Positions 6,498-63,217 of a stretch of 64,000 nucleotides of DNA are shown here, in pieces. The DNA comes from a phage. The translations under genes were made by a program, and so were the position numbers. The stretch is from the NCBI GenBank assembly GCA_037574385.1, contig GCA_037574385.1_4529.1. One strand, given 5' to 3'. Positions within the stretch are counted from its first letter, which is position 1. Every line of letters begins with the position of its first letter. A model generated the notes under the pieces. That model did not search any database and was not told where the DNA came from. It worked only from the letters and a program-made list of their open reading frames with translations.

Positions 6498-6594
6498 TTT
6501 ATTTCTCCAATTTGGTTGTTTTGTTTTGATAGGTCTATAATATCACGTTTGAAGCACGTGTAAACTGTTTTATGAGAAAAAAAAATGCACAAAA

Positions 6595-9593: not shown

Positions 9594-9661
9594 GATGTTA
9601 TCCTCTTTTAGATAGGACTACTGTATCATAGTCCTACTTAGTTGTAAACACTTTTATGAAA

Positions 9662-11427: not shown

Positions 11428-13641
11428 TTATTTGGCCGCTTCCACGGCCTTCATGAATTTAACGATTTGAGCGACTTGTTCTTTAGAAAGAGTACCACGT
11501 CGTCCCATGTATTCTGACACAATATGATAATTGGTTTCGAATTCAATAACCATTTTATCATCATTATCGTAAGCATTATCTTTAAGCTTATCGAAAATTT
11601 TAGCACACAATTCTAACTTTTTATTCAGTTCTCTGTTAGTAGCACCTGAGAATCGATTCCATCCCCAACGATTATTTACCGTTGAGAGTTTTGCAAAATC
11701 TTTACTGATTTCTTTGTTTTTAGAGCTAAAATACTTACTAAGGAAGTTAAGCTCTTCGTTACGAGTAATATGATTCAAATAAGGCTGTGCTCTACGACTT
11801 GGTGATACATACTCATCATAATCCACTTTATCAATTAGCGTAATATAGTCATTAATTGATTTTTCGAACAAGCATTCTACTTCGCCAAGTTTACGAACTT
11901 TCTTAGCAATCTGTGGACGAACTACAGTGAACTCTTTAATACCTGACAAATCAGCAATACGGGTCAAGAAATTGGAGTCATAGTTCAACCAACCTTTATC
12001 TGCGTCAAGACATTCAGCATTAGAACGATTACGAACTATAGCATAACCTTGGATTTCATCTGCTTCACTTGCTGGAATAAAGAGGTCTTCTGATACCCAA
12101 ACATCGTTTTCATTCTTAAAGAATCGATGAGCACTTGGCGATTTAGGACGAGGCTCATTAGTCCGTTTCCTGACTTCAATCCATGGCTTAACGATTTGTA
12201 AAAGCTCTGAAGTCTTGTACATGTTAATGTTGTCGCCGTCAAAGATAACTTTAAGGCGTTCCAGAAGTTTCATTGCATCTTCGTCTGTAGGGTCAACGAA
12301 TAGTACGCTTTTACCAAAACCGCGTGGAACTTTACCGGTTAATTTAACCTCGTCTTTAGACATTTCAATTGAATTAAGAGCTCGCATTAATGGAACGCGT
12401 CCCTTAACGTCGTCAATAACAATTTCAACGTTTTTAATGTTAATGCCAATCAGGCTGTTAATTGAAATAGTTGATGATGAGCTACCACTTTCACGAATAC
12501 GACGAAGACGAGGGGATTCAACGATATCGTATACGACGCCAAGATTACACCACTCAGGCCCCATTTTAAAACGTTTATACAACTCAGAATAAGTTAGTTG
12601 TTCTTTAGAGTATTTCAGTGATTCAATATTAGACCCAGCCTTTTCCATGTATTTACGAGCGGTATAGCCAAGAGAATCAATTTCACGGAACACATGACGT
12701 GGGTATTTACAATCAATCCATTTCTTAGAATCTTCAGCGAACAATTTAGCATCGATTTCTGCAACGCGTTTATGGATATTTGCTACTGTACGTTTATCAA
12801 ACGACAATGCTTCACGAGACGGAGCTACATCTAGTTCACCCATAGGGAATTTAATATAAGCTGTAGTGCATCGTGTCATCATCCATGTTTGTTCTTTAAT
12901 AACACTTCCGATTGGATAAACAATACCACCATAAACAGCCATGATATTACCACGTTCACCCCGTGGAGCTTCCTTGGCCAAATATACATCGTCAAATTCT
13001 GGGAAGTATTTAATATCTTTAACACCACGAACTTCTGCTATATCACCTAAAGGACGCATAACATATGCAATTTCAGATGCGAACTTTTCAAAATCTTCTG
13101 GGTTAACCGGTACGACTACTTCTACACCCGTACGGTCATCAGGACCCATCTTATCTACAAAGGTTGGCTTAATTTGAGGACCCGTGTCATCTTGGTAGAT
13201 TACGTAACCACGAACTTCACCGTTGTGATAAGACGTAAGGTTAAACGTATCGGTATATGCTAGCGGAGCTTTAGAGCCGAGCCCGAATCCACCAATGAAA
13301 TCGTTGCTCGATGTTTTAGTTGAAGCAAAATATGAGTTATAGATTCCTGGCTCTTCGTCATTACCTCGAATAGTGAAATCACTCATACCAGGACCAAAGT
13401 CTCGAACTACAAAACGTGGGTCTAAACGACCTGGAGCCTGAACAATAAACTTATCAGTGCAACCGTTAAGAATTTGTCCATCAATACAGTTTGTGATTAA
13501 TTCACGTACACAAGCCAATTCTTTGTTTGTATAAAGGTCATTAGACAAAATCTTATAAACTTTGCTATTGCCTTGAATAGTGAATGCTGTACTCTTACCG
13601 CCTGAACCAATAATCGTTTCTTTAGCCGTTTCAATAATCAT
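11428..13641 (-). CDS. rIIA: rIIA protein
   Basis: 737 aa, N-terminal GHKL-ATPase-like region; size and position match T4 rIIA. Confidence 0.95.
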   Translation of the reverse strand: MIIETAKETIIGSGGKSTAFTIQGNSKVYKILSNDLYTNKELACVRELITNCIDGQILNGCTDKFIVQAPGRLDPRFVVRDFGPGMSDFTIRGNDEEPGIYNSYFASTKTSSNDFIGGFGLGSKAPLAYTDTFNLTSYHNGEVRGYVIYQDDTGPQIKPTFVDKMGPDDRTGVEVVVPVNPEDFEKFASEIAYVMRPLGDIAEVRGVKDIKYFPEFDDVYLAKEAPRGERGNIMAVYGGIVYPIGSVIKEQTWMMTRCTTAYIKFPMGELDVAPSREALSFDKRTVANIHKRVAEIDAKLFAEDSKKWIDCKYPRHVFREIDSLGYTARKYMEKAGSNIESLKYSKEQLTYSELYKRFKMGPEWCNLGVVYDIVESPRLRRIRESGSSSSTISINSLIGINIKNVEIVIDDVKGRVPLMRALNSIEMSKDEVKLTGKVPRGFGKSVLFVDPTDEDAMKLLERLKVIFDGDNINMYKTSELLQIVKPWIEVRKRTNEPRPKSPSAHRFFKNENDVWVSEDLFIPASEADEIQGYAIVRNRSNAECLDADKGWLNYDSNFLTRIADLSGIKEFTVVRPQIAKKVRKLGEVECLFEKSINDYITLIDKVDYDEYVSPSRRAQPYLNHITRNEELNFLSKYFSSKNKEISKDFAKLSTVNNRWGWNRFSGATNRELNKKLELCAKIFDKLKDNAYDNDDKMVIEFETNYHIVSEYMGRRGTLSKEQVAQIVKFMKAVEAAK

Positions 13642-13653
13642 ATTTTTCTCTCA

Positions 13654-13854
13654 TCACAAGTTACGTTTAAAAATTTCTGCTACTTCAAGAAGTTCTTCTT
13701 TAGTAGCTGTATCGGTTTGTATTTTATATCGAATTTCTTTAAAGCGTTCTTTAAAGGACTCTGCTGACTCGATATCAAAAAATCTTTGGATAAGCCGGAA
13801 TTCCCGGAGCACTGCTTTATCAAAAAGTTCCAAGTCCACGTTATATGTTCTCAT
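13654..13854 (-). CDS. rIIA.1-like small protein (66 aa)
   Basis: Short ORF immediately upstream of rIIA as in T4. Confidence 0.6.
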   Translation of the reverse strand: MRTYNVDLELFDKAVLREFRLIQRFFDIESAESFKERFKEIRYKIQTDTATKEELLEVAEIFKRNL

Positions 13855-13879
13855 AATATTCTCTTCAGTAGATTCCTAG

Positions 13880-13930
13880 GGCACTATTACTAAAGACCAT
13901 ATAATCTATCATCTTATGTGTAATAGTGCC
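13880..13930 (-). promoter_or_regulatory. 11-bp stem-loop with -10-like element in the loop, between glycosyltransferase gene and rIIA.1
   Basis: GGCACTATTAC ... GTAATAGTGCC perfect inverted repeat; loop contains GATTATAT. Confidence 0.45.
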
Positions 13931-13946
13931 TCAGGCGATTCAGGAT

Positions 13947-15047
13947 TTACGCTGTGAAGATTTTATCCCACATTGCAACAACTGCATCTCGGTTATACTT
14001 CTTCCATACTGCTTCAGCACGTTTAACTCGAGCTTCGTATGTGTCAGTGAATTCTAATACAGCTTTTGTGTAAAGCGCAACTACTTCTTTCTTAGGAGTA
14101 GAGGAATCAATTTCTACACGCACAGTATCTGGGTCATATTCGAATGTCGCATGCGGATAATCCTTAAAAACTAACTGAATTACAGGGACACCTTTAGAAA
14201 TGGCTTCAATAGAACTATTCTCTACCGTACCTGTGTCAGGACACGTATTAATAAGTGCTTTAGCTGTTTTAAGACGTTCCATAATTTCACTGTGTGGAGC
14301 ATCAATAATAACAGGATACTTAGCCGGTGGTGCCCATTTACTAGGACAGTATCCTGCGCCATTTTCGCCTAGTGCTTTAATCGCTTCAAGAGCAACATCA
14401 GTACGACGCATTTTAGTGTCATAACGTTGTGCACTAATAATCAGATCAGTCGCCGGAAGAACTTCAGGTTTCTCATTCAAACAAATAACCGGATAATCTT
14501 CGGCTTCAAACAACGGATTTGCTCGCCAATAATCATAATCAATTTTGTCAGTCAGACCTGAAGTCATATAACAATATTTGCGTTCAAATTCACGGAAGGC
14601 TTTAGTAGGAGCATAACTCTTACCACCGTTCTTATGAATTTGAATAGTCTGGTCCCAAATTTGAACAATGCCACGAGATACCGGCTCAAACGGTGTTGCC
14701 ATAAAATTCTTATGAACTTTAGAGAGACCTGCGTCTTTAATTGCCTGAACGGTTAGTTTAGTCGGTTCCATTGTAACAACGAAATCGTACTCATTAATGC
14801 CGGCTAGTTCAACAATCTTACGAGCCATAGTATAACTCATACCTAGACTGAATTTAGTCAGATGACCAACAGGATGATGATTAACCTTCCAATCACCAAA
14901 CGTGTCATTATCAAAGCCGATATAATCAATATCAGCACCGATGGACACAAGATATTTCAACACATTTAAATGTACTGCTTCAAGACCACCTTGTACACGT
15001 TCTGGGTTAAACGGGACTGCGCGAGATGGGATAAACATAACTTTCAT
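13947..15047 (-). CDS. GT-B fold glycosyltransferase (candidate DNA sugar transferase)
   Basis: 366 aa; N-terminal Rossmann segment and C-terminal ENSSIEAISKGVPVIQ resembling the GT4 E-x7-E donor-binding motif; occupies the rIIA-39 gap. Confidence 0.55.
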   Translation of the reverse strand: MKVMFIPSRAVPFNPERVQGGLEAVHLNVLKYLVSIGADIDYIGFDNDTFGDWKVNHHPVGHLTKFSLGMSYTMARKIVELAGINEYDFVVTMEPTKLTVQAIKDAGLSKVHKNFMATPFEPVSRGIVQIWDQTIQIHKNGGKSYAPTKAFREFERKYCYMTSGLTDKIDYDYWRANPLFEAEDYPVICLNEKPEVLPATDLIISAQRYDTKMRRTDVALEAIKALGENGAGYCPSKWAPPAKYPVIIDAPHSEIMERLKTAKALINTCPDTGTVENSSIEAISKGVPVIQLVFKDYPHATFEYDPDTVRVEIDSSTPKKEVVALYTKAVLEFTDTYEARVKRAEAVWKKYNRDAVVAMWDKIFTA

Positions 15048-15073
15048 AATTAAGCCTTATTAAAATTAAAATG

Positions 15074-15091
15074 AAGCTCCCGAAGGAGCTT
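15074..15091 (-). terminator. UUCG-tetraloop hairpin / terminator after gene 39
   Basis: Minus-strand RNA AAGCUCC-UUCG-GGAGCUU followed by U-rich tract. Confidence 0.5.
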
Positions 15092-16907
15092 AGGACATCC
15101 ATTCTTTACGAAGTTCTGAATCATCACCCAACAACATTTCAAAGAGTTCTTTCCAATTTTCAGGAAGTTTAACTACGTCGTACACAGGGTTTTGAATCAT
15201 TTCACGATATTCTGACTTTTCAAGGGAGCCCAATCCCTTGATGTATCGAATACTATGCTTAGGCAGTGTATCTTTAGCTTCTTCATACTCAGCTACAGTA
15301 TAAAACCATTTTTGAGTTTTGCCGATTTGTGCAATAATTACAGGTGTTTTAACAAAGCGAATACGTCCTTGTTCAAACAATTCAGGCCAATTACTAAAGA
15401 AAGCAAGCAAAGCCGGATAGATACTTCCAAGACCGTCATGATCGGCATCGGTCATAATTGCAATATTACGATAGTTCGTATTCTCTGCCTTTTCACCAAG
15501 AATAAGACCTGTGATAGCACAGATATCAAAGAGCTCTTTGTTCTTCATCATATCGGCATATGACATACCCCAGCTATTCATCACCTTACCACGTAATGGG
15601 AATCCGCCGTGTAGTTCACGGTCACGAACATCAATGAGATATCCAATTGCCGAATCACCTTCTGTTAAAAACAATGTCGTATCTGCATCTTTACCGCATT
15701 GGTTAGCTTTAATATGCTTATGAACCTTAGCTTTAGTTGCCTTTTTAGCTGCTTTAGTTTCTGCAGCCTTTTCTGCTGCCAATTTACGAGCTAATGCTGC
15801 TTCAACAATAGGCATAATCAAGGCTTCGTTTTTAAGAAGTGCCTGAGCAATTTTCTTAGCATCTAATTGGATATGATTACGAATATCACCATACGTTGAC
15901 GTTAAACGTTCTTTAGTCTGAGAATCAAAACGCATGTTGCTCATGTCTCTAATAAACATCAACATTGTGAGACATTCTTTAACACGAGCTTTAGTGACTT
16001 CAATACCCTTATATTTCTTTTTAATACCCGGCAAAAGATGTTCGCAAATATCATCCATTACACATTCAACATGATGACCACCATTTTTAGTATGGATGTT
16101 ATTCACATAAGTTAAATGACGGAAGCCATCCGGTGATGTTGTGAATGCTATAGAGACTTTATCATTTTCTTGAATGATGTTATCTTCACCAAATTGTTTA
16201 GCAAATCGTTTAAAATTGCCATCAACCTTTTTACCATTAAATGTGAACTTGATATCAGGATAAACGACTGCCAATGTTTGAAGTCGGTCTAAAGTAATAT
16301 CTAAATAAATTTGAGATAAATTATGCTCTTCAAATGAAGTGAAATCAGGAGTGAAGATTACTTTAGTGCCTTTACCTTTAGATTTCTTAGAAGACCATGA
16401 TTTGTTTTCCATTCCGTTTGAACAGTTAACAGTGATTTCATTTTCGCCATCTGACGTGATGCCTGTAAACAACGTAGAGAAGATATTAGTTAAACTACTC
16501 CCGACGCCGTTCATACCACCTGTCTTGCGTTCAGAGTCGTCACCAAAGTTACCACCGGCCTTTGGAATAGTCCAGGCTGCTACAGGCCCAGGAATTTGTT
16601 CACCCGTTTGGTCGGTAACTAAACCTTGAGGAATACCACGTCCGTTATCTTCCACTGAAACTTGATTATTTTTAATTTGCACATCAATTTTATTTGCAAA
16701 CTTAAATGATGTACGAATAGCTTCATCAACCGAGTTGTCAATAATCTCATCGATTAATTTAACCAGACCAGGAACATATTCAACTTGTTGATATTTACCA
16801 AACAAAAAACGCTCATGTGCTTCTTTAGCTGAAGAACCAATATACATACCACTACGTTTCTTAATATGTTCTACATCTGACAGTACCTTAATTTCATTTT
16901 TAATCAT
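15090..16907 (-). CDS. 39: DNA topoisomerase II large subunit (GyrB-like), gp39 and gp60 as one uninterrupted ORF
   Basis: 605 aa: GHKL ATPase N-domain plus Toprim region; length equals T4 gp39 + gp60. Confidence 0.95.
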   Translation of the reverse strand: MIKNEIKVLSDVEHIKKRSGMYIGSSAKEAHERFLFGKYQQVEYVPGLVKLIDEIIDNSVDEAIRTSFKFANKIDVQIKNNQVSVEDNGRGIPQGLVTDQTGEQIPGPVAAWTIPKAGGNFGDDSERKTGGMNGVGSSLTNIFSTLFTGITSDGENEITVNCSNGMENKSWSSKKSKGKGTKVIFTPDFTSFEEHNLSQIYLDITLDRLQTLAVVYPDIKFTFNGKKVDGNFKRFAKQFGEDNIIQENDKVSIAFTTSPDGFRHLTYVNNIHTKNGGHHVECVMDDICEHLLPGIKKKYKGIEVTKARVKECLTMLMFIRDMSNMRFDSQTKERLTSTYGDIRNHIQLDAKKIAQALLKNEALIMPIVEAALARKLAAEKAAETKAAKKATKAKVHKHIKANQCGKDADTTLFLTEGDSAIGYLIDVRDRELHGGFPLRGKVMNSWGMSYADMMKNKELFDICAITGLILGEKAENTNYRNIAIMTDADHDGLGSIYPALLAFFSNWPELFEQGRIRFVKTPVIIAQIGKTQKWFYTVAEYEEAKDTLPKHSIRYIKGLGSLEKSEYREMIQNPVYDVVKLPENWKELFEMLLGDDSELRKEWMS

Positions 16908-16956
16908 GTTGTCTCCTCGTTATGAAGGTATTCTATCATCCGAAATCTAAAGCAAA

Positions 16957-16972
16957 AAGGGCCGAAGCCCTT
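16957..16972 (-). terminator. UUCG-tetraloop hairpin at 3' end of upstream gene
   Basis: Minus-strand RNA AAGGGC-UUCG-GCCCUU then U-rich. Confidence 0.45.
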
Positions 16973-18806: not shown

Positions 18807-18847
18807 CTCCTCTGGTTGATACGGTTATAATATCAAAACCAGAGGAG
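18807..18847 (-). promoter_or_regulatory. 11-bp stem-loop with -10-like element in loop and Shine-Dalgarno in 3' arm
   Basis: CTCCTCTGGTT ... AACCAGAGGAG perfect inverted repeat; minus-strand 3' arm CAACCAGAGGAG is followed by AATAATATG. Confidence 0.5.
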
Positions 18848-18859
18848 AAGTAAACAACT

Positions 18860-19279
18860 TTATGCGAAAGCAGCCGGGCTATATTTTTTAATTTGGAATT
18901 CAGGAACTACCATGAACTGACCAGCGAAAACGATGTTATAAAGCTTAACACCATCTTCTACCCAACGGTCGCTAATAAATCCGGCGATTTGCTTAGTTTT
19001 CCATGGCGTTCCATCGGTTGCCGCAGCAATAGTGAATTCGTGGTCTTTTTCAACAGAAACTGATCTGCATAGTCCCCATTTGAACGCTTTTTCTTCTGGT
19101 TCAATGAATTGGCTTGAGACGTAGCCAATGTTGCCATCAGCATCACGAACTTTAACTTGATGTGGACTAAAGAGTCCACAACTTACAGAAAGAACTTCAA
19201 CCAACTTCCCAGCAACTTTAGAGCGAGAAGCAACAGATACATATACGTAATCACCAATAGAGAGATTTGCAATATTCAT
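18860..19279 (-). CDS. hypothetical protein, member of a 3-gene tandem paralog family
   Basis: C-terminal region shares ...GFISD.WVEDG.KLYNIVF.G.F.VV... with the next two genes. Confidence 0.6.
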   Translation of the reverse strand: MNIANLSIGDYVYVSVASRSKVAGKLVEVLSVSCGLFSPHQVKVRDADGNIGYVSSQFIEPEEKAFKWGLCRSVSVEKDHEFTIAAATDGTPWKTKQIAGFISDRWVEDGVKLYNIVFAGQFMVVPEFQIKKYSPAAFA

Positions 19280-20362: not shown

Positions 20363-20392
20363 ATTATACTCCAACCATCCTTGGTTGTAAAC
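20363..20392 (-). promoter_or_regulatory. early promoter-hairpin repeat (TTATACTCCAACCATCCTTGGTTGTAAACTG)
   Basis: Minus strand has GTTTACA, ~17-18-nt spacer containing CAACC..GGTTG stem, TATAAT; ~30 nt upstream of the gene start. Confidence 0.55.
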
Positions 20393-30051: not shown

Positions 30052-30114
30052 TTTAACTCCTTAGTTGATTTGATAGGACTACTATACTATAGTCCATCTA
30101 TAATGTAAACAAGT

Positions 30115-30363
30115 TTATTCTTTTTCGCGAATAATAATTACTTGTTGAGGCTGCTGAGCAGATTTCTTTTCGGCAACGATAGACCAAATTAAAGTTCCAA
30201 TCCAACCAACCATCGTCCAGTTAAAGAGCAAAGATACAAAGAAGATTGCTGTTGTGCTTTTTGTGCCACGAATAAGTGCGATTACCCAAGGCAACATGTA
30301 AATGATGATTGAACCAATACCTGCGATTAAAACTGCTACTGAACTAGCTACGAATAATTCCAT
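30115..30363 (-). CDS. small membrane protein (82 aa, two TM segments)
   Basis: Hydrophobic ORF in operon orientation. Confidence 0.5.
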   Translation of the reverse strand: MELFVASSVAVLIAGIGSIIIYMLPWVIALIRGTKSTTAIFFVSLLFNWTMVGWIGTLIWSIVAEKKSAQQPQQVIIIREKE

Positions 30364-31373: not shown

Positions 31374-31414
31374 CTCCAGTAGTTGATAGGTCTATAATAA
31401 CACAACTACTGGAG
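31374..31414 (-). promoter_or_regulatory. 12-bp stem-loop with -10-like element in loop and Shine-Dalgarno in 3' arm
   Basis: CTCCAGTAGTTG ... CAACTACTGGAG perfect inverted repeat; minus strand GTTTAC-17 nt-TATTAT; 3' arm ...CTGGAGAACAAAATG. Confidence 0.5.
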
Positions 31415-31422
31415 AAGTAAAC

Positions 31423-31797
31423 TTAAAAACGTAATTTAGATATATCTGCGTTGATTTCGTTTTGGTTTGCGTCGTATGCAATTAAACGAACCGCTTTAGA
31501 TGGGTCATTCAATGCATAGAAATGATGGAACATTGCTCGAACGATATCACCATTTACGAGTTCTACCTGGATAGGAGAACCTTTTTCTAGTTGGAAATGT
31601 TCATAAGCTTTGATGGTTCGCAGATAATCAAGTTTTTGATTTCCGGCTCCAACAATTTGTACGATACGTTTGCCCATGTTTTCCATACGAGATACAATAG
31701 TTTTAGGAGCAAGAATAACGTAGGTTGCCAACGGAGAAACTACTTCAACAGTTGTGTTTTCGGTGATTGCAGTAAAAATTGCTTGAGACATATTCAT
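31423..31797 (-). CDS. hypothetical protein (124 aa)
   Basis: First ORF downstream of 41. Confidence 0.5.
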   Translation of the reverse strand: MNMSQAIFTAITENTTVEVVSPLATYVILAPKTIVSRMENMGKRIVQIVGAGNQKLDYLRTIKAYEHFQLEKGSPIQVELVNGDIVRAMFHHFYALNDPSKAVRLIAYDANQNEINADISKLRF

Positions 31798-31863: not shown

Positions 31864-31879
31864 GGAGACCGAAGTCTCC
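31864..31879 (-). terminator. UUCG-tetraloop hairpin after gene 41
   Basis: Minus-strand RNA GGAGAC-UUCG-GUCUCC; U-rich flank mainly on the plus strand. Confidence 0.45.
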
Positions 31880-34943: not shown

Positions 34944-35492
34944 TTAACGAGCCCATTTGATAATTTCTGTAATCAAATTATTACGTTCGCTTGCATTAAA
35001 TCCTATAACTTTGTTAGCACCATCATGATTAAGTAATTGATACGTTTGGATTTTGTTATGAATTGCAAACTCTTCAAAATGTGAAATGACTGTATTAAAA
35101 CCGAATGAAGACAAAGTAATAAGGTCGTCTTCAAAACTTTCAGTCATTTCGTTACGTGTTAAAATAATTGTGAACACATCATGGTTTTGGCAAAGACGAA
35201 TATAATCCTGTTCATAAACGTCAAGAACCGAGTCCGCATCTTGTCGAATACGTCCATAAACCCAGTTACTAATATATCCACGGTCTAATAGATAAATCTT
35301 AGTAGGGTCTAAATAATTCAACATCGTTTCGAAACAGCCAACTTCATTTCGAGACTTAACATCGAAACGCCCATCAACTGTTCGTTTAGGGAAATCAATC
35401 TTTACATATCTTTCACTAATTTCCATTATGTCATTAATGAAAGTTGTTTTACCAGCATTATCCGGTCCGTCTACTAAAATAATTTTAGCCAT
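34944..35492 (-). CDS. P-loop kinase (NMP-kinase/gluconokinase-like fold), substrate unknown
   Basis: 182 aa; Walker A LVDGPDNAGKTT at residues 5-16 and a later hhhhD Walker B-like segment. Confidence 0.55.
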   Translation of the reverse strand: MAKIILVDGPDNAGKTTFINDIMEISERYVKIDFPKRTVDGRFDVKSRNEVGCFETMLNYLDPTKIYLLDRGYISNWVYGRIRQDADSVLDVYEQDYIRLCQNHDVFTIILTRNEMTESFEDDLITLSSFGFNTVISHFEEFAIHNKIQTYQLLNHDGANKVIGFNASERNNLITEIIKWAR

Positions 35493-35493
35493 T

Positions 35494-36393
35494 TTATTCC
35501 TCGATTACGACATCTTCGTATTTAGGTATATTATACGGTGAAGAAATTAAAGCATTAAAGTAGATGAACTCACCAAGACCTGGATGGAATACTTCTTCAG
35601 GATTTTCGAAATATTGAATCTTCGGACGTCCTTTAAGAATTTGATAGTACTCAGTTTTAGTTGGTTTAAAAATTCGAATCAGCGCTTCTTCAGGGTACTT
35701 ATTTCTGTCGAAGCTAATATTTGGATCTGTTATATAAAGCGGTTGGCCTAATTGAATTGCACATTCAACCACTTGTTCAAAACGATAGCACGGGTCACTA
35801 ATTCGAAATGGATGAAAAATACCATCTAGATGAATAGGAGCCAAATCACCTACAAGACGCTGCATGATGGAAGGACGTATAACTTTCTGCGTTACGATAA
35901 TCTTATTACCATCTGCACCTGCGTTAACCAGCACTTCCTTTTGACGTTCATTCAACACAGTAGTTTGAAGTGAACGATTAACCGACAACATATCGGTTTT
36001 TAAGAATTCATCAATATAAAAGCGTGGTTTATTAGGGTCTGTAGTGATATTGAAATTGAATTCCACATCAAAAGCGCCATCATATCCAGTGATATCTGTG
36101 ATTAGAAAATCACAATCATAATAAGCAATTAATGAATCAACCACAAATTCATTTTCAGACCAGAAATATTTACGAGTGTTATACGCGTTATCTTTATACC
36201 ATAATGGAACAAACTTAAATTCCGGGAAAAGACGTTCACATTCTTTAATATCAGATGCATTACGTGGATATGTAATCACATCACCCGGATTAGCACGGTG
36301 CAAATGAAGTTGGAAGTTGCCATCCTTAAGGATAGCATACTGTCCAGTTTCATAAGACCGCATACTCAAGATTGGTACGCGGAAAATAGCCAT
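35494..36393 (-). CDS. hypothetical protein (299 aa) at the position of T4 beta-gt; candidate transferase
   Basis: No motif recognised; placed between uvsX and the hydroxymethylase where T4 encodes beta-glucosyltransferase. Confidence 0.5.
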   Translation of the reverse strand: MAIFRVPILSMRSYETGQYAILKDGNFQLHLHRANPGDVITYPRNASDIKECERLFPEFKFVPLWYKDNAYNTRKYFWSENEFVVDSLIAYYDCDFLITDITGYDGAFDVEFNFNITTDPNKPRFYIDEFLKTDMLSVNRSLQTTVLNERQKEVLVNAGADGNKIIVTQKVIRPSIMQRLVGDLAPIHLDGIFHPFRISDPCYRFEQVVECAIQLGQPLYITDPNISFDRNKYPEEALIRIFKPTKTEYYQILKGRPKIQYFENPEEVFHPGLGEFIYFNALISSPYNIPKYEDVVIEE

Positions 36394-37109
36394 TAGTCAA
36401 GGAATCCTTTAACATAATCAAAATCACGTTCAAACACATGGGCACTTACCATGGTATGAGTATAATCACCAACTTCTACACCGCATTCGTTAGCGATATA
36501 ATGAAGTAATTTTCCTTGGAGATAAAAATCCAACTGCATAACAACAGCACAGTTCTGAGAACGCATATGGCAGTGCGTATAAAGCTTACCATCACGAATA
36601 TAATAAGTAACTGAGTCAGTACATGGATATTCAAGCGTTTCGTCTGAATCAAGCAAAGCCTGATCAGAACTTTCTAGAATTTGGAACACAACTCTTCGGG
36701 AGTTAGGCTTCTCTTTAAGTTCTTTTAGAAGAGCTGGTAATTGGGCCGCAATGCGAGGACCATAGAAAGTGTTGAAGTTCGCCGGCAAAACATCTGATTT
36801 TGGTTTAGAAATAAATTTAGCGACATTAGGATATGCCTTAAACGCTTCTTCTGCGTTGGTACCACCAGAAATCATAAACTTCCAGAAGTCTTCGGCATAT
36901 TCATAAGAGATGCGGTTAATACGTGGGTCGGTCATTTTGAATGATGATGGAGTGTCAACAACTACTGTCATAGACCCAATTTCATTACAACGTCCAATAC
37001 GAGAATCAGTTACGAATTCCGGGTTTTCTAAAATTTCACGATTGACTGCTTTAAATGCGGTTTGAAAATCTGCGGCTTTGATATATTTCATTGTGTTATG
37101 TTTTCCCAT
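36393..37109 (-). CDS. thymidylate-synthase-family pyrimidine nucleotide hydroxymethylase (divergent gp42-like)
   Basis: 238 aa; SRRVVFQILES, EYPCTDSVTYYIRDGKL and VSAHVFERDF align with TS / dCMP-hydroxymethylase motifs (catalytic Cys in PCT). Confidence 0.6.
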   Translation of the reverse strand: MGKHNTMKYIKAADFQTAFKAVNREILENPEFVTDSRIGRCNEIGSMTVVVDTPSSFKMTDPRINRISYEYAEDFWKFMISGGTNAEEAFKAYPNVAKFISKPKSDVLPANFNTFYGPRIAAQLPALLKELKEKPNSRRVVFQILESSDQALLDSDETLEYPCTDSVTYYIRDGKLYTHCHMRSQNCAVVMQLDFYLQGKLLHYIANECGVEVGDYTHTMVSAHVFERDFDYVKGFLD

Positions 37110-37151
37110 GTTTACCTCAATACAATTTATTATATACTCAATTCGTAAAGC

Positions 37152-37391
37152 TTATTTGAATTTCTTGACAATGTTGATATAACGTAAAGCTTCAGCATCG
37201 ATACTTCCAAGGACACTATGAAGAAATGCATCAGCGTAGTATTCCAATTGAATAGGTTCTTTAATCACTTTAGCCGCTTTGGTTTCAAACAGGCCCATCA
37301 GGGCCTTTTTAAGAATTTGTTCGTTGCTGTTAATTTTCGTAGTCAAAATCTCTTCATTAAGTTGGTGGTTAAAAGTTTTTCTAGAAATCAT
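37152..37391 (-). CDS. hypothetical protein (79 aa)
   Basis: ORF within the cassette. Confidence 0.45.
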   Translation of the reverse strand: MISRKTFNHQLNEEILTTKINSNEQILKKALMGLFETKAAKVIKEPIQLEYYADAFLHSVLGSIDAEALRYINIVKKFK

Positions 37392-38563
37392 TCCGGGTAC
37401 CTCAAAGCGTCATCAGAGTTAGTTATATCAATAATAGATATAGAGTTTTCTGCTAACCCATTTTTAGATAATTGACGTTTATAATATCTTTCACAATATG
37501 TACACGTTGACCCACAGATTTCATTAGCACAATCAAAATCAGGATGTCTGAACCACCTTTTTTCTAAAAAGCCATCTAACAAAGAGGTTTCAATATTTAC
37601 TGTATGTGAAAACTCAGTCTCATTTTCAAGAGTGAAAATAGTCTCTAAAGGCTTCCACAGTTCTAACAAATTACCTTCAAACTTTTCAGAAGCGTATGCT
37701 TCAAGAACTTTCAAAATGTAGTCTGTGCTACCTGTACGTCCTGAAACTTTGAATTGAGTGATACCAATATCATTATAAAGTTTCAAATCTTGAGGACGAA
37801 CAAAACGAGTTCTCAACCAGTTAAATGGGTCTGTATCACGAGCTTTAATACAGTGCTGCATTGGATATCCATTTAAGGATTTAGCATCATCAGCTGTAAC
37901 ATCAGTACTATGGAAAATATAGCAAGAGTCACGATAGCTACAATGTGTTGTATACCCTTTACCAGCATTAGAACAGAACTCATTTACAAGAACTTCAAAT
38001 ATTATATTGTTCTTATTGCAAAACTCTGCTGCACGCTTCAGGAAAGAAACTGAACGGTTCTTATGAATTCCACAGCAGACCTTTTTGATATTATATTGGT
38101 CATGCAAGTATTTGATTTGAGTTACGGCATCGACATGTAGAATTGTTGAAACTTCAATCTCAATATCTTTATTGACTTCACGAACAATTTCCATAACAAC
38201 AGGGTTAGCGATAGTAATACGCCATACGCCTATTGACCAAAGATACTGAACATAATCCTGAATAGCTTTCTTCTTCCACTCAACTAGTTCTCTTTTTGAA
38301 CCAGGATTTATCGTGTTGAGTGTATAGTTAAAGCAAATACCTAATTCGTTACAACGTTTAACGTAGTCTTCTAACATCTTTTTGTCAACGTCAGGAAGCC
38401 TAAAATCAGGTCTGGCTGCTACAAAAGCCATTTCTCTTGTAGAGCCATATACTTCGTTTATCAAGCTATTAGGATAGGTTTTATTGAGCTCTACGATTTT
38501 ATCAAGAAGAGCTAAATCAAAATTCGTTCCGATTTTAAAAGTATTCATTTTTTTGCATCTCAC
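37388..38563 (-). CDS. Cys-rich hypothetical protein (391 aa), possibly metal/Fe-S binding
   Basis: Several conserved-looking Cys; C-terminal C-x4-C-x3-C-x2-C (CANEICGSTCTYC). No family assignable by eye. Confidence 0.5.
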   Translation of the reverse strand: MRCKKMNTFKIGTNFDLALLDKIVELNKTYPNSLINEVYGSTREMAFVAARPDFRLPDVDKKMLEDYVKRCNELGICFNYTLNTINPGSKRELVEWKKKAIQDYVQYLWSIGVWRITIANPVVMEIVREVNKDIEIEVSTILHVDAVTQIKYLHDQYNIKKVCCGIHKNRSVSFLKRAAEFCNKNNIIFEVLVNEFCSNAGKGYTTHCSYRDSCYIFHSTDVTADDAKSLNGYPMQHCIKARDTDPFNWLRTRFVRPQDLKLYNDIGITQFKVSGRTGSTDYILKVLEAYASEKFEGNLLELWKPLETIFTLENETEFSHTVNIETSLLDGFLEKRWFRHPDFDCANEICGSTCTYCERYYKRQLSKNGLAENSISIIDITNSDDALRYPE

Positions 38564-38604
38564 GTTAATTGATGCGATGGTTTTTGCAGGTCTTACTTAA
38601 ATTA

Positions 38605-39006
38605 TTATAGATTCGGTTTATATGATTTAAATGTTTCGAATTCGCCTTTATTCATAAGAGCTTTGAATTCGTCAGGACGCATAGCTTTGTCGTCGATAAT
38701 CCAATCATATACTGGTTTATGTGTTAGCAAATTATGGTACTTCAAGCCAATGTTTGCCAAGTTCTGAATCAGACTTGGGAGAATGTCAATTGCTATACGT
38801 CCAGGACCTACTGACTTCATACCACGAGCAGTGTAAAGCGTTATGGTATGCCCTGCATCATACAGGGCATTAATGGCAGACACCATTTCGACGTCTGGTT
38901 TGAAGTTCACGTAATCGCGATTGTTATTCCATTCTGTGATGCAATCATCGACATCAAAACAAAGATTAAGCATGTTTTCTACACGGTGCATTAGATTTGT
39001 TCCCAT
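38605..39006 (-). CDS. small HAD-superfamily phosphatase
   Basis: 133 aa; motif I FDVDDCIT near N-terminus; later T/S and K/D motifs consistent with a capless HAD phosphatase. Confidence 0.55.
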   Translation of the reverse strand: MGTNLMHRVENMLNLCFDVDDCITEWNNNRDYVNFKPDVEMVSAINALYDAGHTITLYTARGMKSVGPGRIAIDILPSLIQNLANIGLKYHNLLTHKPVYDWIIDDKAMRPDEFKALMNKGEFETFKSYKPNL

Positions 39007-40676
39007 TGATGAGTGATATCGCCACCGATTGGACGATAAGAAACACCAGTTTCTTTATCAGTTAGTACCCATTTACCAGGATTTTTTGTAATCAGAGTAG
39101 CCGTTACAGGTTCTGCTACGTCATAACTAATAGAGCCGTCTTGAAGTACACGGCCCATGTTACGTAATTGCTTAGTTAGAAGTTCCATACCTTTATAATA
39201 TGCGGCTACCGCTTTAAGTGGATTATTCTTGAAATAACCACCTAATGCAATCCAGATAATTGCCACTGCCAAATGATGATACTCGTTAAACGAACTCATC
39301 TTTCCATATTTGTAAACTAATGGATTGATGTTAATAGTCACATTACAAGTTGTTTCATCAATAATAAACTGGCCCCAGGTCGGATTAGCGTTGAATTCAT
39401 CATAACCTGAAACAGCATAAAGCACTTTAGCTTCATCATACAATTTTGGCCCGTAAATCTTGGTTTCACCAAAATATCCACGAGGGTCGATAAACTTGAC
39501 TTCGCCGTTATCAGTAATCATAGTATTACTGAAGTTCGGGTCACCGTGAATAACAGAGTACTGTCCCTGAGAACGGTTATGATAACGAATAAGGTGTTCT
39601 AAAGCTTGTTTCAGCATTGGCTTCAGACGTCCAATCTTAGTGTAGTTCACGTGTGTGATTTTACCAAATGAATCAATCAATGGCTGAATGCTTTCACAAC
39701 GATCAATAACTTTCGTATAGAACTCTTTAGTGAAATCACGACGAACAGTTTCAGGACTTACAAAATAAATGTCTGTGTTAAATTTCAGTGCATCTAAAAT
39801 TGCATCAATAATTTGTGGACGAGCAAGACTTGATTTGGATTTAATATATTCAAATGCTGGCTTACCTTTAATGCGTTCCATTTCAAAGTTATTTTCATTA
39901 ACAGAAACTAACTGAGGAACTGAATCTGATTTCACTTTCAAATACCATGAAATCTCATCTTTTTGAAGAGCTCGACCTTGTTCAGTTAATGCGAATTTAG
40001 TTACAGTTTCTTCACCAATTTCAACCGCATTAAAACTACGATTAAGTTCACGAACTTCATGAGCTTTTTCAAGTTTAGGCATATCACCAAGGTCGATGAT
40101 ATTCATAAGCTCTGATTTATTGAATGCGCCGCTGTAAAGGAATTCTACAAAATCACGTCCTTTGCAGTATTCGTGAATTTCCTCATCAGTAGAACCCATG
40201 TAGAATTCCCAGTCTTTGAACTGATAAATTCCTACAACATTACCGCCTGTTGCACCTACATTAGTGATATTTTCACCATCGAAATTATATCGACATTCAT
40301 CACCTTTAACATAGATTGCGTTAACATTCCAAGACCATGAACCAAAATCAGGAATAATATCACACCAGTTAACAACTACGTTATGGCCGTCTAAATCTTT
40401 GTGTAATTTAGCAAGAGCATAAGCAGAACCATACGCTTCATCAACTGTACGAATAGTCACATTGAACCCTTCTTGCTCACAATAAGCTCGAACAGTTTCA
40501 GCAAATTTTGAATGAACTACTACAATAATTTCATCTGCGCCAAGGTCAGAATAAATTGTATACAAATTGCTCAGAATAGTGTCTTGTTTATAGTTCACAA
40601 GAACTTTTGGAATATGGTGAGTAATTGGATATAAACGAGTTGCCAATCCAGCACCAAGAATAACAGCTTTTTTCAT
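38991..40676 (-). CDS. bifunctional sugar-1-phosphate nucleotidyltransferase / APH-type anomeric sugar kinase
   Basis: 561 aa; N-terminal ILGAGLATRLYP (G-x-G-x-R nucleotidyltransferase signature); C-terminal HGDPNFSNTMI...KFIDPRG matching the APH/choline-kinase catalytic loop. Confidence 0.65.
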   Translation of the reverse strand: MKKAVILGAGLATRLYPITHHIPKVLVNYKQDTILSNLYTIYSDLGADEIIVVVHSKFAETVRAYCEQEGFNVTIRTVDEAYGSAYALAKLHKDLDGHNVVVNWCDIIPDFGSWSWNVNAIYVKGDECRYNFDGENITNVGATGGNVVGIYQFKDWEFYMGSTDEEIHEYCKGRDFVEFLYSGAFNKSELMNIIDLGDMPKLEKAHEVRELNRSFNAVEIGEETVTKFALTEQGRALQKDEISWYLKVKSDSVPQLVSVNENNFEMERIKGKPAFEYIKSKSSLARPQIIDAILDALKFNTDIYFVSPETVRRDFTKEFYTKVIDRCESIQPLIDSFGKITHVNYTKIGRLKPMLKQALEHLIRYHNRSQGQYSVIHGDPNFSNTMITDNGEVKFIDPRGYFGETKIYGPKLYDEAKVLYAVSGYDEFNANPTWGQFIIDETTCNVTININPLVYKYGKMSSFNEYHHLAVAIIWIALGGYFKNNPLKAVAAYYKGMELLTKQLRNMGRVLQDGSISYDVAEPVTATLITKNPGKWVLTDKETGVSYRPIGGDITHQWEQI

Positions 40677-40713
40677 GTTGAAGTCCTCATTGGTAAGTAG
40701 GTGTATTGTACAC

Positions 40714-40860
40714 TATTCTAGTTAAAGCATTCATACTTTGCCTGTAGACCAATCATAATCCATCCAATTACAAGTGTTGGAATCATTACTGGAGCCGTTA
40801 AGCTCCAGTAGATAGTCATGACAAGCATCAATAGTAAAAGTCCTATTGTTATTGCTTTCA
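40714..40860 (-). CDS. possible small membrane protein (~48 aa, below threshold); positional candidate for Imm-like protein
   Basis: Hand translation MKAITIGLLLLMLVMTIYWSLTAPVMIPTLVIGWIMIGLQAKYECFN; ATG overlaps the upstream stop (ATGA). Confidence 0.35.
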
Positions 40861-41493
40861 TTGTTCGCCTCGTAACATGGCACCTAGTGCACCGCCAGGG
40901 TGGAACTTAAGGAAATCATTAGAGGTAAATCCGCGTTCAGACGAAAGGTTGATAGCGAACGTATCGATAAGCGCTAACAACAATGTAGTGGACATAGTCG
41001 GAGCTAAAGAGTTCTCGTCAACTTCTACCGCGATACCGGTACAGAATGTATAATCAAAAAGAGCTTCGTATTCTTGTGGAATGTCAGGGTTACAATGTAA
41101 CAGAATCTGTTTAACCTGAGGACGAATCATACGAAGATGTTTAGCAACACCTATCATTTCTTCAGTCTTACCAGAACGACTGATGTGAACTAATACATCA
41201 TTAGGTGCAATGAATCCTGCATCACCGTGAGAATAATGCCCAGTGTTCAAATACATGCTAGGAATACCTAGTGAAGCAAAAGTCTCGGAAGCTTTAGTTG
41301 CGATATTAGCGTTCTTACCAACACCTGTAATAATTACACGACTTTCATAATTACTCAGTCCTGGGCGTCGAAGAGTTTCTAGAATAGCATTATAACGAGC
41401 AGGGTTTTGACTAATTACTTTGGCCATAGCGGCCAAAGAAGAAGCTTGTTTTATGATTGCGTCAATAGCGATAGTGATTGGTGTAGTTTTCAT
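40858..41493 (-). CDS. SIS-domain sugar-phosphate isomerase, D-arabinose-5-phosphate isomerase (KdsD/GutQ)-like
   Basis: 211 aa; ITGVGKNANIATKASETFASLGIPS matches the SIS phosphosugar-binding motif; single SIS domain without CBS domains. Confidence 0.65.
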   Translation of the reverse strand: MKTTPITIAIDAIIKQASSLAAMAKVISQNPARYNAILETLRRPGLSNYESRVIITGVGKNANIATKASETFASLGIPSMYLNTGHYSHGDAGFIAPNDVLVHISRSGKTEEMIGVAKHLRMIRPQVKQILLHCNPDIPQEYEALFDYTFCTGIAVEVDENSLAPTMSTTLLLALIDTFAINLSSERGFTSNDFLKFHPGGALGAMLRGEQ

Positions 41494-44291: not shown

Positions 44292-44323
44292 TATTATACT
44301 CCAAATGGGACCGAAGTCCCATT
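44292..44323 (-). promoter_or_regulatory. UUCG hairpin immediately followed by -10 TATAAT between regA and 43
   Basis: Minus strand CAAUGGGAC-UUCG-GUCCCAUU then TGGAGTATAAT. Confidence 0.5.
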
Positions 44324-61174: not shown

Positions 61175-61203
61175 ATTATACTCCAACCATCCTTGGTTGT
61201 AAA
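61175..61203 (-). promoter_or_regulatory. early promoter-hairpin repeat
   Basis: Identical to the 20363-20392 copy (ATTATACTCCAACCATCCTTGGTTGTAAA). Confidence 0.55.
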
Positions 61204-61208
61204 CTGAT

Positions 61209-62165: not shown

Positions 62166-62192
62166 TTTATATTCCTCATGTTGAAAAAAATT

Positions 62193-62222
62193 ATTATACT
62201 CCAACCATCCTTGGTTGTACAT
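62193..62222 (-). promoter_or_regulatory. early promoter-hairpin repeat
   Basis: ATTATACTCCAACCATCCTTGGTTGTACA; same element with -35 variant. Confidence 0.55.
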
Positions 62223-63217
62223 CATTCCTTAAGAAGTTTTACTACCTGAATAAGATTAGCTCGTTCTGTTTTATTTTTACCGTTCAGTCCGGCCAATCGC
62301 GAGATTTCATCGTCAGTTTGTTGAATAGTTACATTAAGTTCATTAATCAAAGCTTCAAAGTATTTGATTTGCTCAGCATGTTTTGATTCAAATTTCTGAA
62401 CCGGAATAACGTCTTGGTTCAGTTCATCAATAAGGTCTTTAAGAGCATCTTCTTGGTTGATATCATATTCAACTTCTTTTATTTCTTCAACGAGCTCGTC
62501 TTTATATCTAACGTCTTTTAGTCCTGGTGCTGGTCCTGAAATCTCTTCTTTAAGAGTACAAACATATCCAATACGGTATCCAGTTCCGTCTCGCTTGATA
62601 TCAACTTCGTCGATAAATCCACAATGTTTAAGTCCAGAGCCGATTATGTCAAAATATCCTTGACGTCGTCCTTCAAACGTTACACGAACTACTAAGACAG
62701 TTTTGCCACCAACCTTTTGAAGCTCACATTTATAAAAGTCTGTTGAACCTGAATAACGTGGATGAGTTTTAAAGTTCATCTGACGATCTAAGCCCATTTG
62801 TAAACGTGCTGTTACGGCCATAAAACGTGTTTGGTTCTCGTTAAGATGAGCAACGATCCATTTCAAAGGCATTTTACACTGTTCACGTCCGAACAAATCA
62901 GTACGTCCTAGATTACGCAGGATGTTGTTAGAGTTAATCATCGACAGAACGTTAAGTTTATTCAGCGCGCTGAAGATTCCATCAGCCATTGATTTTCCAT
63001 AACCTTTACACGCTTTAATAAGTGCTCGCGGCAGATTAGCATAGATTTCGGACGGCATATGAAAATCAAATTTACTAGTCAGTAATTGATGAACTTGGAT
63101 AGCAATTTGCTCATAATTAAGTGCTCTGCGATCGTTATGGTCTTTAAACCACACTTTAATCTGTGAAGCACATAAACCGTTAATTTCATGTTTTACCGCA
63201 TCAGATGTAATGCTCAT
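62222..63217 (-). CDS. hypothetical protein with long C-terminal coiled coil (331 aa)
   Basis: C-terminal ~100 aa highly charged heptad-like; preceded by variant promoter-hairpin (ATTATAACCCGTCCTTGGGTAAA). Confidence 0.6.
   Translation of the reverse strand: MSITSDAVKHEINGLCASQIKVWFKDHNDRRALNYEQIAIQVHQLLTSKFDFHMPSEIYANLPRALIKACKGYGKSMADGIFSALNKLNVLSMINSNNILRNLGRTDLFGREQCKMPLKWIVAHLNENQTRFMAVTARLQMGLDRQMNFKTHPRYSGSTDFYKCELQKVGGKTVLVVRVTFEGRRQGYFDIIGSGLKHCGFIDEVDIKRDGTGYRIGYVCTLKEEISGPAPGLKDVRYKDELVEEIKEVEYDINQEDALKDLIDELNQDVIPVQKFESKHAEQIKYFEALINELNVTIQQTDDEISRLAGLNGKNKTERANLIQVVKLLKE

Follow-up and report, generated by a model that had tools for sequence, protein, structure and literature searches.

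The glycosyltransferases (GTs) of phage T4 transfer glucose to 5-hydroxymethylcytosine (hmC), and the beta-alpha-GT of T2 and T6 produces gentiobiosyl-hmC. Mosigvirus DNA differs from that of T4 in both sugar and base, as it carries arabinofuranose ether-linked at C5 of 5-hydroxycytosine (5hoC). In RB69, ORF003c was nominated as a putative arabinosyltransferase by Thomas et al. 2018 (PMC6024577), and the same protein, gp3, is the 'beta-arabinosyltransferase 2', the second of two, of Lee et al. 2026 (PMC13326640); its reassignment within a scheme of two DNA arabinosyltransferases dates from 2025-26. Acting together in vitro, the related proteins gp76 and gp77 of Acinetobacter phage DLP3 attach a third arabinose to the DNA of RB69, with UDP-arabinofuranose (UDP-Araf) as donor (PMC13326640). 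In the same study no single GT, DLP3 gp79 included, modified 5hoC-DNA in vitro and the first arabinose transfer was not reconstituted; the order in which these enzymes act is therefore hypothetical.

The DNA analysed here, a window of 64,000 nucleotides, belongs to a Mosigvirus (RB69-like) genome. Between rIIA.1 and gene 39 it contains an ORF of 366 amino acids (Table 1), whose product is 99.2% identical to RB69 ORF003c/gp3 (NP_861693) over 366/366 residues and matches the PHROG 8302 profile at positions 1-366 (E 1.6e-222); the gene order rIIA, rIIA.1, ORF, 39 is identical to that of RB69. The gene is the ortholog of RB69 ORF003c/gp3, an enzyme already published and crystallised, and not a new one. 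The crystallised ortholog ('phage HY126 glycosyltransferase', 98% identity) is found in PDB entries 9IQZ (apo) and 9IR0 (UDP), both deposited in 2025, and its binding of UDP is implied by the title of 9IR0. Seven substitutions separate it from the protein studied here (E16D, N56T, N85H, Y160H, G163A, A231V and S315F), none of them at invariant positions. The RB69 and HY126 orthologs share the length of 366 residues, the position between rIIA.1 and 39, the flanking hairpins and the distant module. As the original prediction had it, the ORF fills the gap between rIIA and 39, with rIIA.1 and 39 as its neighbours, and lies about 20-26 kb away from the sugar-nucleotide module; the comparison of this interval that it called for was carried out and reveals a variable slot among T4-like genera.

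Taking these data together with those below, we consider it likely that the RB69 ORF003c/gp3 ortholog is a soluble, UDP-sugar-dependent GT-B enzyme of GT4-like type that adds the second arabinose to the modified cytosine. This analysis established the identity of the gene, its fold and its placement between rIIA.1 and 39, together with the phyletic pattern and the presence of a second GT within the module; the work of others supplied the di-arabinosyl chemistry, the in vitro extension by the Acinetobacter paralogs and, through the crystal entry, UDP binding.

Table 1. Positions of the features discussed in the text, numbered along the window.
Feature	Positions	Strand	Remarks
rIIA	11428-13641	minus	
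rIIA.1	13654-13854	minus	
61-nt stem-loop	13875-13935	minus	between GT stop codon and rIIA.1 start
366-aa ORF	13947-15047	minus	ATG start
Nucleotide-sugar-binding motif ENSSIEAISKGVPVIQ	14175-14222	minus	residues 276-291, C-terminal
Shine-Dalgarno AAGG	15058-15055	minus	7 nt 5' of 366-aa ORF ATG; read from sequence
C(UUCG)G tetraloop hairpin	15074-15091	minus	AAGCTCC-TTCG-GGAGCTT then CATTTTAATT
Gene 39 (fused 39+60, 605 aa)	15090-16907	minus	
T4 middle-promoter-like motif (TGCTT...TAGAAT)	16930-16954	minus	23 nt 5' of gene 39 ATG
5-hydroxy-dCMP / UDP-arabinose module	34944-41493	minus	Pfam: Thymidylat_synt, Peptidase_U32, NTP_transferase, SIS
Nucleotide kinase	34944-35492	minus	
GT1, 299-aa GT-B, RB69 gp46:47 ortholog	35494-36393	minus	
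ThyA-like 5hodCMP synthase	36393-37109	minus	
U32-like protein	37388-38563	minus	
HAD-like phosphatase	38605-39006	minus	
NTP-transferase+kinase	38991-40676	minus	
SIS arabinose-5-P isomerase	40858-41493	minus	

Sequence profiles were of little help with the fold. A Pfam-A scan of the ORF returned nothing even at E<=10 (neither Glycos_transf_1, PF00534, nor Glyco_trans_4), an NCBIfam scan gave zero matches, and the precomputed Pfam annotation of all homologs is blank, because the family is too divergent for curated HMMs; structure was therefore used for the fold assignment. The predicted model (pLDDT 92) bears out the proposed GT-B fold, with two Rossmann-like beta/alpha/beta domains and a cleft between them, and its nearest neighbours are GT4-type enzymes, T4 alpha-GT being further away. 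These bacterial neighbours (sucrose-phosphate synthase 6KIH, BshA 6N1X/3MBO, PimA 2GEJ, tetrahydrobiopterin glucosyltransferase 5ZER and WaaG) are only 10-14% identical to the phage protein and act on a lipid or small molecule, whereas its own predicted acceptor is a sugar on DNA. T4 alpha-GT (1Y6F/1XV5; 10% identity) ranked under ~35 bacterial GT4 enzymes in the structure search, and T4 beta-GT was not among the top 60 structural matches of the model. The enzyme probably acts on a sugar acceptor and, in function, is probably closer to the beta-alpha-GT of T2 and T6. A non-GT Rossmann protein is excluded by the fold searches and the UDP-bound ortholog.

The donor-binding set of GT-B enzymes consists of an N-terminal Gly-rich loop, a phosphate Arg/Lys and a C-terminal ribose Glu. 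In 12-13 family members, with identities down to 19%, G20 is at least 90% conserved and R208 and E281 are invariant; PMC6024577 maps these three residues to G15, R204 and E311 of T4 alpha-GT. E281, the conserved GT-B glutamate, is part of the C-terminal motif listed in Table 1, where A282, G286 and Q291 are likewise invariant across the family and E276 and S279 at least 90% conserved. This motif had been described as GT4-like. The nearest structural neighbours are GT4 enzymes, and the PDB depositors named the protein 'Glycosyltransferase subfamily 4-like N-terminal domain-containing protein', but a GT4 Pfam match is missing and so is EX7E, two glutamates eight residues apart: G273 sits eight before E281, and the closest conserved glutamate is E276, giving E-x4-E in place of the EX7E spacing.

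The distant module, whose gene functions are as assigned in Table 1 of PMC13326640, has a GT-B enzyme of its own, GT1, which shows no relationship to the 366-aa protein detectable at the sequence level. GT1 is syntenic with the sole arabinosyl-GT of the mono-arabinosylated phage Thanatos, and it is the probable first, base-proximal arabinosyltransferase. The presence of GT1 bears on the original prediction that the 366-aa enzyme is the DNA sugar transferase served by the module: the two do belong to the same modification pathway (PMC6024577, PMC13326640, PMC13390438), but the module does not depend on a remote gene for a GT-B. The predicted acceptor, hmC, has to be given up, as Mosigvirus DNA has arabinosylated 5hoC (PMC13326640, PMC13390438). 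That the 366-aa protein is nevertheless the primary transferase, placing the sugar straight onto the modified cytosine in a system split between donor module and remote transferase, appears unlikely to us. ORF003c was the original RB69 nominee (PMC6024577), its ortholog is the one in the PDB with UDP, and the role of GT1 is putative, its ortholog DLP3 gp79 being inactive on 5hoC-DNA as well (PMC13326640); against this stand the GT-B of the module with its synteny to Thanatos, the nature of the acceptor, and the distribution of the two enzymes.

GT1 was found in 349 phage records from many genera (Dhakavirus, Tegunavirus, Klebsiella, Serratia, Proteus, Shewanella Thanatos and Acinetobacter phages) and no arabinosylating phage is without it, whether or not the 366-aa gene is there as well. 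The ORF003c family, in contrast, comprises only 212 records, and a set of 1.84 billion proteins yielded just 11 representatives of it. Its members from isolated phages all belong to Mosigvirus or to Acinetobacter phages, two groups that carry GT1 too. [quoted passage not shown] Since these phages arabinosylate their DNA without an ORF003c homolog and GT1 lies in the module, the 366-aa enzyme is most likely a second, chain-extending transferase. Family copy number runs parallel to the length of the arabinose chain: Thanatos has no copy and is mono-arabinosylated, Mosigvirus has one copy and carries both mono- and di-arabinosyl (in phage NP at a ratio of about 1:4), and Acinetobacter DLP3 has two copies and is tri-arabinosylated. 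One record with a homolog labelled 'Tegunavirus' was rejected as an exception to the restricted distribution; the genome is probably of Lazarusvirus type and wrongly labelled, because its protein is 92% identical to an Acinetobacter-phage protein and occurs in two copies.

DLP3 gp77 and gp76, which are identical or near-identical to DLP1_075 and DLP1_074, show 42.6% and 41% full-length identity to the 366-aa protein (range 41-43%) and belong to the same family and pathway, with UDP-Araf as donor and DNA as acceptor. The arrangements differ, however: the Acinetobacter phages have two paralogs, 54-57% identical to each other, within the module and right behind the kinase, and the DLP3 product is tri-arabinosyl, while the single Mosigvirus copy lies ~20 kb away and the product is di-arabinosyl. 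In the family tree the Mosigvirus protein is co-orthologous to both Acinetobacter paralogs, whose duplication postdates the Mosigvirus split, so that function cannot be transferred one-to-one from gp77. We also considered that the 366-aa protein might depend on GT1 as an obligate partner, either within a hetero-complex or through the passing on of the product, with little activity alone. Tri-arabinosylation in DLP3 required both gp76 and gp77, the PDB example chain is H, and four chains in two entries with the same sequence hint at an oligomer. Such a dependence nonetheless seems quite improbable, as G20, R208 and E281 are all conserved, the crystal entry has UDP bound, Mosigvirus has one ORF003c-family copy only and GT1 is without detectable sequence kinship to the 366-aa protein.

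The second transfer is assigned to this particular enzyme as the most likely reading by our analysis. In the pathway as published, the ThyA-like enzyme generates 5-hydroxy-dCMP, which substitutes for dCMP in replicated DNA, and the isomerase, the kinase/uridylyltransferase and the phosphatase of the module supply UDP-Araf. GT1 would attach the first arabinose to the 5-hydroxyl, and the 366-aa enzyme would then add a second one to it on DNA, with UDP-Araf as donor. The resulting di-arabinosyl-5-hydroxycytosine dominates Mosigvirus DNA and guards it against host nucleases.

How the gene is expressed was approached through its flanks. The UUCG hairpin that the original prediction took for a terminator is present. 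It begins within the stop codon of gene 39, with which its first bases coincide, and folds as RNA with -11.1 kcal/mol (z -2.6); it is the one site found by the terminator scan (1.2 expected in shuffles). It satisfies the scan rule, yet its stem is short (7-bp) and its U-run interrupted (CAUUUUAAUUUU). OL960576 annotates it as a rho-independent terminator, and VR5 and CHI14 have hairpins of other sequence at the same position. Further CTTCGG hairpins are found where other genes end. The hairpin is probably terminator-like and leaky; termination there must be partial, because the GT gene downstream is without a promoter. That gene has a ribosome-binding site and no recognisable promoter of its own: a sigma-70 promoter scan stayed at chance level (6 found versus 5.2 expected), and neither a T4 early (GTTTAC..TATAAT) nor a middle (TGCTT..TAnnnT) motif occurs on the minus strand of 15047-15400. 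A cassette bringing the GT its own promoter was rejected on these searches. T4 middle-promoter-like motifs number 37 in the window against 15.8 expected, and the one 5' of gene 39 (Table 1) is plausible as the nearest promoter for a unit of 39, GT, rIIA.1 and rIIA. The GT is most likely expressed from transcripts that start at promoters 5' of gene 39 and read through the leaky UUCG hairpin.

On the other side of the gene, the 11-bp stem-loop placed at 13880-13930 by the original prediction was confirmed within a larger element (Table 1): the stem is perfect over 11 bp (GGCACTATTAC / GTAATAGTGCC) and reaches 16 bp with one internal mismatch, around a 29-nt loop. Its folding energy on the transcribed strand is -28.5 kcal/mol (z -5.75; 0/200 shuffles as stable). 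The element is conserved within Mosigvirus only, where variants of it occur, and an Rfam search of 13500-15400 at E<=1 returned nothing. It has no U-tract and for this reason fails the intrinsic terminator rule. A TATAAT answering to the 'embedded -10' does stand at 13900-13905, but it is read on the plus strand and is antisense to all genes there; the hexamer is unremarkable, because 96 copies of TATAAT occur on both strands of the window, and the promoter scan makes no call at the element. We infer an mRNA 3'-end or a processing/stability element. It is doubtful, though conceivable, that it is a decayed promoter stem-loop left when the GT replaced the two small ORFs that occupy this slot in other genera, and now a Mosigvirus-specific RNA element; as such it could set the read-through to rIIA.1/rIIA or stabilise the GT mRNA. 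If this were true, then, together with the correlation of 0, 1 and 2 copies with mono-, di- and tri-arabinosyl, the slot would be a modular 'chain-length upgrade' site.

It had further been proposed that the gene is a self-contained mobile cassette, inserted between rIIA.1 and 39 with the flanking hairpins as recombination borders of the PeSL type. PeSLs (promoter-early stem-loops) are said, after Arbiol et al. in 2010, to be mobile regulatory cassettes of T4-type phages, and were recognised here by an early promoter (-35 GTTTAC plus -10) with a stem-loop and by related copies at several loci flanking a shuffled gene. The slot is indeed variable: T4 has 60/60.1/mobA there, and Dhakavirus, Winklervirus and Gelderlandvirus have two small ORFs. 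Family members occur in unrelated contexts in other phages. Early promoters built like PeSLs (GTTTAC, then a stem-loop whose loop holds the -10) are plentiful elsewhere in the window, and the element at 13875-13935 is likewise a stem-loop, its loop containing the -10-like hexamer GATTAT. However, the true PeSL examples in the window have GTTTAC 2 nt ahead of the stem, whereas this element has neither GTTTAC nor another -35 (the position reads GCACTA), is negative in the promoter scan, and resembles no PeSL copy or other sequence of the window (best E about 1). Searches of 13860-13950 and 15040-15110 against the window by blastn-short gave no PeSL-family match, the stem sequence is unique in the window, and the repeat families D1-D4 and D9 include neither hairpin site. 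The two borders are also unrelated to each other; the 5' one, located at the gene 39 stop, is an ordinary C(UUCG)G hairpin, and a hairpin in this position in genera without the 366-aa gene marks it as a backbone feature. In GC content the ORF (0.39-0.41) does not differ from its flanks, so that its composition gives no sign of a recent insertion of foreign DNA. The one structural variant observed, a 503-bp tandem duplication in JK45, has its junctions in coding sequences and not in hairpins. Without a -35, a likeness to the real promoter stem-loops of the window or a compositional anomaly, the cassette layout is very improbable.

This account of arabinosylation has been published before (2018, 2025 and 2026). 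The present analysis makes a small addition, namely an independent confirmation of the fold, a negative result on the promoter/stem-loop cassette, a phyletic argument for an accessory chain-extender over a base-proximal transferase, and the dating of the Acinetobacter paralog duplication to after the Mosigvirus split. Against restriction enzymes, DNA glycosylases and some CRISPR systems, Mosigvirus DNA is protected by its arabinosylated 5-hydroxycytosine, and how far this protection goes seems to be adjusted by the length of the arabinose chain.

At nucleotide level, the 1.7-kb region matches some 150 Mosigvirus genomes with 98-99% identity, ATK47, Shf125875, JS09 and RB69 among them. The glycosyltransferase ORF between gene 39 and rIIA.1/rIIA encodes a protein 99.2% identical to RB69ORF003c (NC_004928 2520-3620), with identical synteny, and on sequence the two are the same gene. 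RB69 ORF003c was nominated as an arabinosyltransferase in 2018 via HHpred and Phyre2 (PMC6024577), and a later study modelled it and gave it the role of second transferase, 'beta-arabinosyltransferase 2' (PMC13326640). A 98%-identical protein is in the PDB as 9IQZ ('phage HY126 glycosyltransferase') and 9IR0 ('...with UDP'); the two entries came out on 2025-07-16, and HY126 is itself among the Mosigvirus-type genomes matching the window. An ortholog has already been crystallised with UDP, and the gene is nothing new in kind. Pfam and NCBIfam scans of the protein gave zero matches, even at E=10, and PHROGs assigns it to phrog_8302, labelled 'unknown function'. Annotations of the gene vary ('DNA alpha-glucosyltransferase', 'putative hmC-arabinosyltransferase', 'hypothetical protein'), for instance in NC_018855 (HX01), MZ501047 (AlbertHofmann) and several Acinetobacter phage records; the first two labels clash with the current chemistry, arabinose on 5-hydroxycytosine.

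The original prediction described the ORF, its motif (ENSSIEAISKGVPVIQ, residues 276-291), its neighbours and the hairpins correctly, and its assignment to a GT-B, GT4-like fold is right by structure. An AlphaFold2 model built from a 12-sequence family alignment (mean pLDDT 92.4, pTM 0.88) predicts such a fold, although the protein belongs neither to the curated GT4 HMM families nor to the T4 alpha- and beta-GT families. The canonical EX7E spacing is absent from the protein, its motif being instead E276-x4-E281. G20, R208 and E281 stay conserved or invariant across the family, even in members with as little as 19% identity; Thomas et al. matched these three to the residues with which T4 alpha-GT binds phosphate and ribose (PMC6024577).

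Features of the glycosyltransferase locus, the arabinose module and the promoter/stem-loop elements
Feature	Position	Strand	Remarks
rIIA	11428-13641
rIIA.1	13654-13854
Stem-loop	13875-13935		between glycosyltransferase stop and rIIA.1 start
Glycosyltransferase ORF	13947-15047	minus	366 aa, ATG start
Shine-Dalgarno AAGG	7 nt upstream of ATG	minus	of glycosyltransferase ORF
C(UUCG)G hairpin	15074-15091		terminator scan; overlaps gene 39 stop codon
Gene 39	15090-16907		fused 39+60 topoisomerase subunit
Middle-promoter-like TGCTT...TAGAAT	16954-16930		just upstream of gene 39; nearest to glycosyltransferase ORF
Module	34944-41493		between uvsX and gene 43
Nucleotide kinase	34944-35492
GT1	35494-36393		299 aa, no Pfam match
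Thymidylate-synthase homolog	36393-37109
U32-like protein	37388-38563
HAD-like protein	38605-39006		small
NTP-transferase + kinase	38991-40676		561 aa
SIS-domain arabinose-5-P isomerase	40858-41493
Genuine promoter stem-loops (examples)	about 6565, 18855, 20392, 31422, 61204, 63863	minus
Copies sharing 30-mer	20363-20392, 61175-61204	minus	41 kb apart
Related early-promoter copies	near 6521-6565, 9608-9657, 18807-18870, 30069-30118, 31374-31437, 62179-62228, 63815-63878
CTTCGG examples	16962-16967, 31869-31874, 44311-44316	minus

The ORF had also been placed in a split modification system, as a candidate transferase for a distant sugar-nucleotide module. The module exists and the ORF is remote from it, but the module is not itself transferase-less: it carries its own GT-B protein, GT1, so the system is not simply a donor module in one place and a transferase in another. 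It has two transferases, one inside the module and one remote. GT1 and the 561-aa ORF are intact in the window, and the RB69 reference splits them (ORF046c/047c and ORF052c/053c); the intact forms are consistent with the published view that these splits are sequencing errors. No early or middle promoter motif was found upstream of the remote ORF, and it is probably transcribed by read-through from the gene 39 transcript.

We considered whether the remote gene is a cassette inserted between rIIA.1 and 39 via promoter/stem-loop hairpins, as originally proposed. The slot is indeed variable across T4-like phages, with 60/60.1/mobA in T4 and two small ORFs each in Dhakavirus VR5, Winklervirus CHI14 and Gelderlandvirus STP4-a. 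Homologs also lie elsewhere: within the module, directly after the kinase, in Acinetobacter phages, and, as distant members with 35-38% identity, amid large structural genes near a terminase in a 21-kb metagenomic contig (L012, 8001-9140) and after ligase/DsbA-like genes in a T4-like fragment (L013, 3040-4224). The gene has clearly moved between contexts, and the settings of its distant members suggest that it does so independently of the arabinose module. Several findings, however, speak against a part for the hairpins in this movement. The one following gene 39 (AAGCTCC-TTCG-GGAGCTT then CATTTTAATT; -11.1 kcal/mol, z -2.6) has counterparts of different sequence directly after the gene 39 stop in both VR5 and CHI14. 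CTTCGG is enriched window-wide (26 occurrences against 16 expected), and on the transcribed strand hairpins with this sequence are also seen where other genes end, so that the UUCG hairpin is a backbone feature. Several copies on the minus strand sit at or close to gene boundaries (upstream of genes 39 and 43, downstream of gene 41), and C(UUCG)G hairpins seem to be a general feature of intercistronic regions in the window.

The stem-loop on the other side is much stronger (-28.5 kcal/mol, z -5.75; 0/200 shuffles as good), with a perfect 11-bp stem that can be extended to 16 bp and a loop of 29 nt. Its 'embedded -10' is literally present as TATAAT (13900-13905) yet reads on the plus strand, antisense to every local gene; this hexamer occurs 96 times in the window, both strands counted, and the promoter scan made zero calls at the site. 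The element lacks GTTTAC/-35, its loop is longer than those of genuine promoter stem-loops, and it has no detectable similarity to these or to anything else in the window. The two borders of the gene are unrelated to each other, its GC content equals that of the flanks, and stem-loop homology is restricted to Mosigvirus. The genome's real promoter/stem-loop elements are families of T4-type early promoters (PeSL-like), with many examples on the minus strand, in which a stem-loop with the -10 in its loop comes after GTTTAC; two copies share the identical 30-mer GTTTACAACCAAGGATGGTTGGAGTATAAT, and none flanks the glycosyltransferase. We conclude that the slot is plastic and that a promoter/stem-loop cassette mechanism is unsupported.

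Within Mosigvirus, the stem-loop varies slightly, with five variable columns in 96 nt (AV115, HY126 and RB69 against the window). Two of them strike one stem base pair, A-T, which HY126 has as G·T and RB69 as A·C; in AV115, two neighbouring changes complete the imperfect outer stem to a perfect 16 bp. The pattern hints at structural constraint without being proof. In Shigella phage JK45 (MK962757 2129-4523), a perfect 503-bp tandem duplication (locus positions 1107-2112) runs from the last ~40% of the transferase gene through the stem-loop into the first 16 nt of rIIA.1, yielding an additional 136-aa ORF; its junctions lie within coding sequence, not at the hairpins, and the duplication is either recent or an artefact of assembly.

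The two transferases differ widely in distribution. By tblastn over 50,697 phage records, GT1 is found in 349, from many genera (Mosigvirus, Dhakavirus and Tegunavirus, and Klebsiella, Serratia, Proteus, Providencia, Edwardsiella, Shewanella and Acinetobacter phages), and homologs of the remote ORF in only 212, all Mosigvirus (one copy) or Acinetobacter phages (two adjacent copies). JS98 and Yersinia TG1 have the module with GT1 only. In two different searches, an exhaustive profile search of 1.84 billion representative proteins retrieved only 11 members of the remote family, and a word-indexed scan of a 5.8-billion-protein collection clustered at 90% identity retrieved 139 GT1 clusters. The single Tegunavirus hit, OZ038340.1 ('Tegunavirus sp. 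BRC001'), has two family copies 92% identical to Acinetobacter Lazarusvirus proteins; TG1, a genuine Tegunavirus, lacks the family, and the record is probably mislabelled. Between themselves the two Acinetobacter paralogs share 54-57% identity, against only 41-44% with the Mosigvirus protein, indicating duplication after the lineages split; the Mosigvirus enzyme is therefore co-orthologous to both, not specifically to gp77.

The acceptor proposed originally, hmC, does not agree with the published chemistry. Arabinosyl-hmC was the first report for Mosigvirus DNA, since corrected to 5-hydroxycytosine; RB69 and NP carry the mono- and di-arabinosylated base, ether-linked at C5, tri-arabinosyl is found in Acinetobacter phage DLP3, and the mono-arabinosylated Shewanella phage Thanatos has just one ara-GT, syntenic with RB69 gp46:47 (PMC13326640; PMC13390438). 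Arabinosylated 5hodC is reported for Serratia LC53 and 92A1, where GT1 is present and a homolog of the remote ORF is absent. According to a secondary citation, deleting 'Aat' from Bas46 made this phage sensitive to a defence system. Family copies of 0, 1 and 2 track arabinose numbers of 1, 2 and 3, and both DLP3 paralogs together put a third arabinose on RB69 DNA from UDP-Araf in vitro (PMC13326640). The remote ORF is probably not 'the' DNA sugar transferase; we infer the order of action of the two enzymes from their distribution and the published proposal. The ORF is best read not as the base-proximal enzyme but as the chain-extending second arabinosyltransferase, as PMC13326640 proposes, which would act much as the enzymes that add the second sugar to DNA do in T-even phages.
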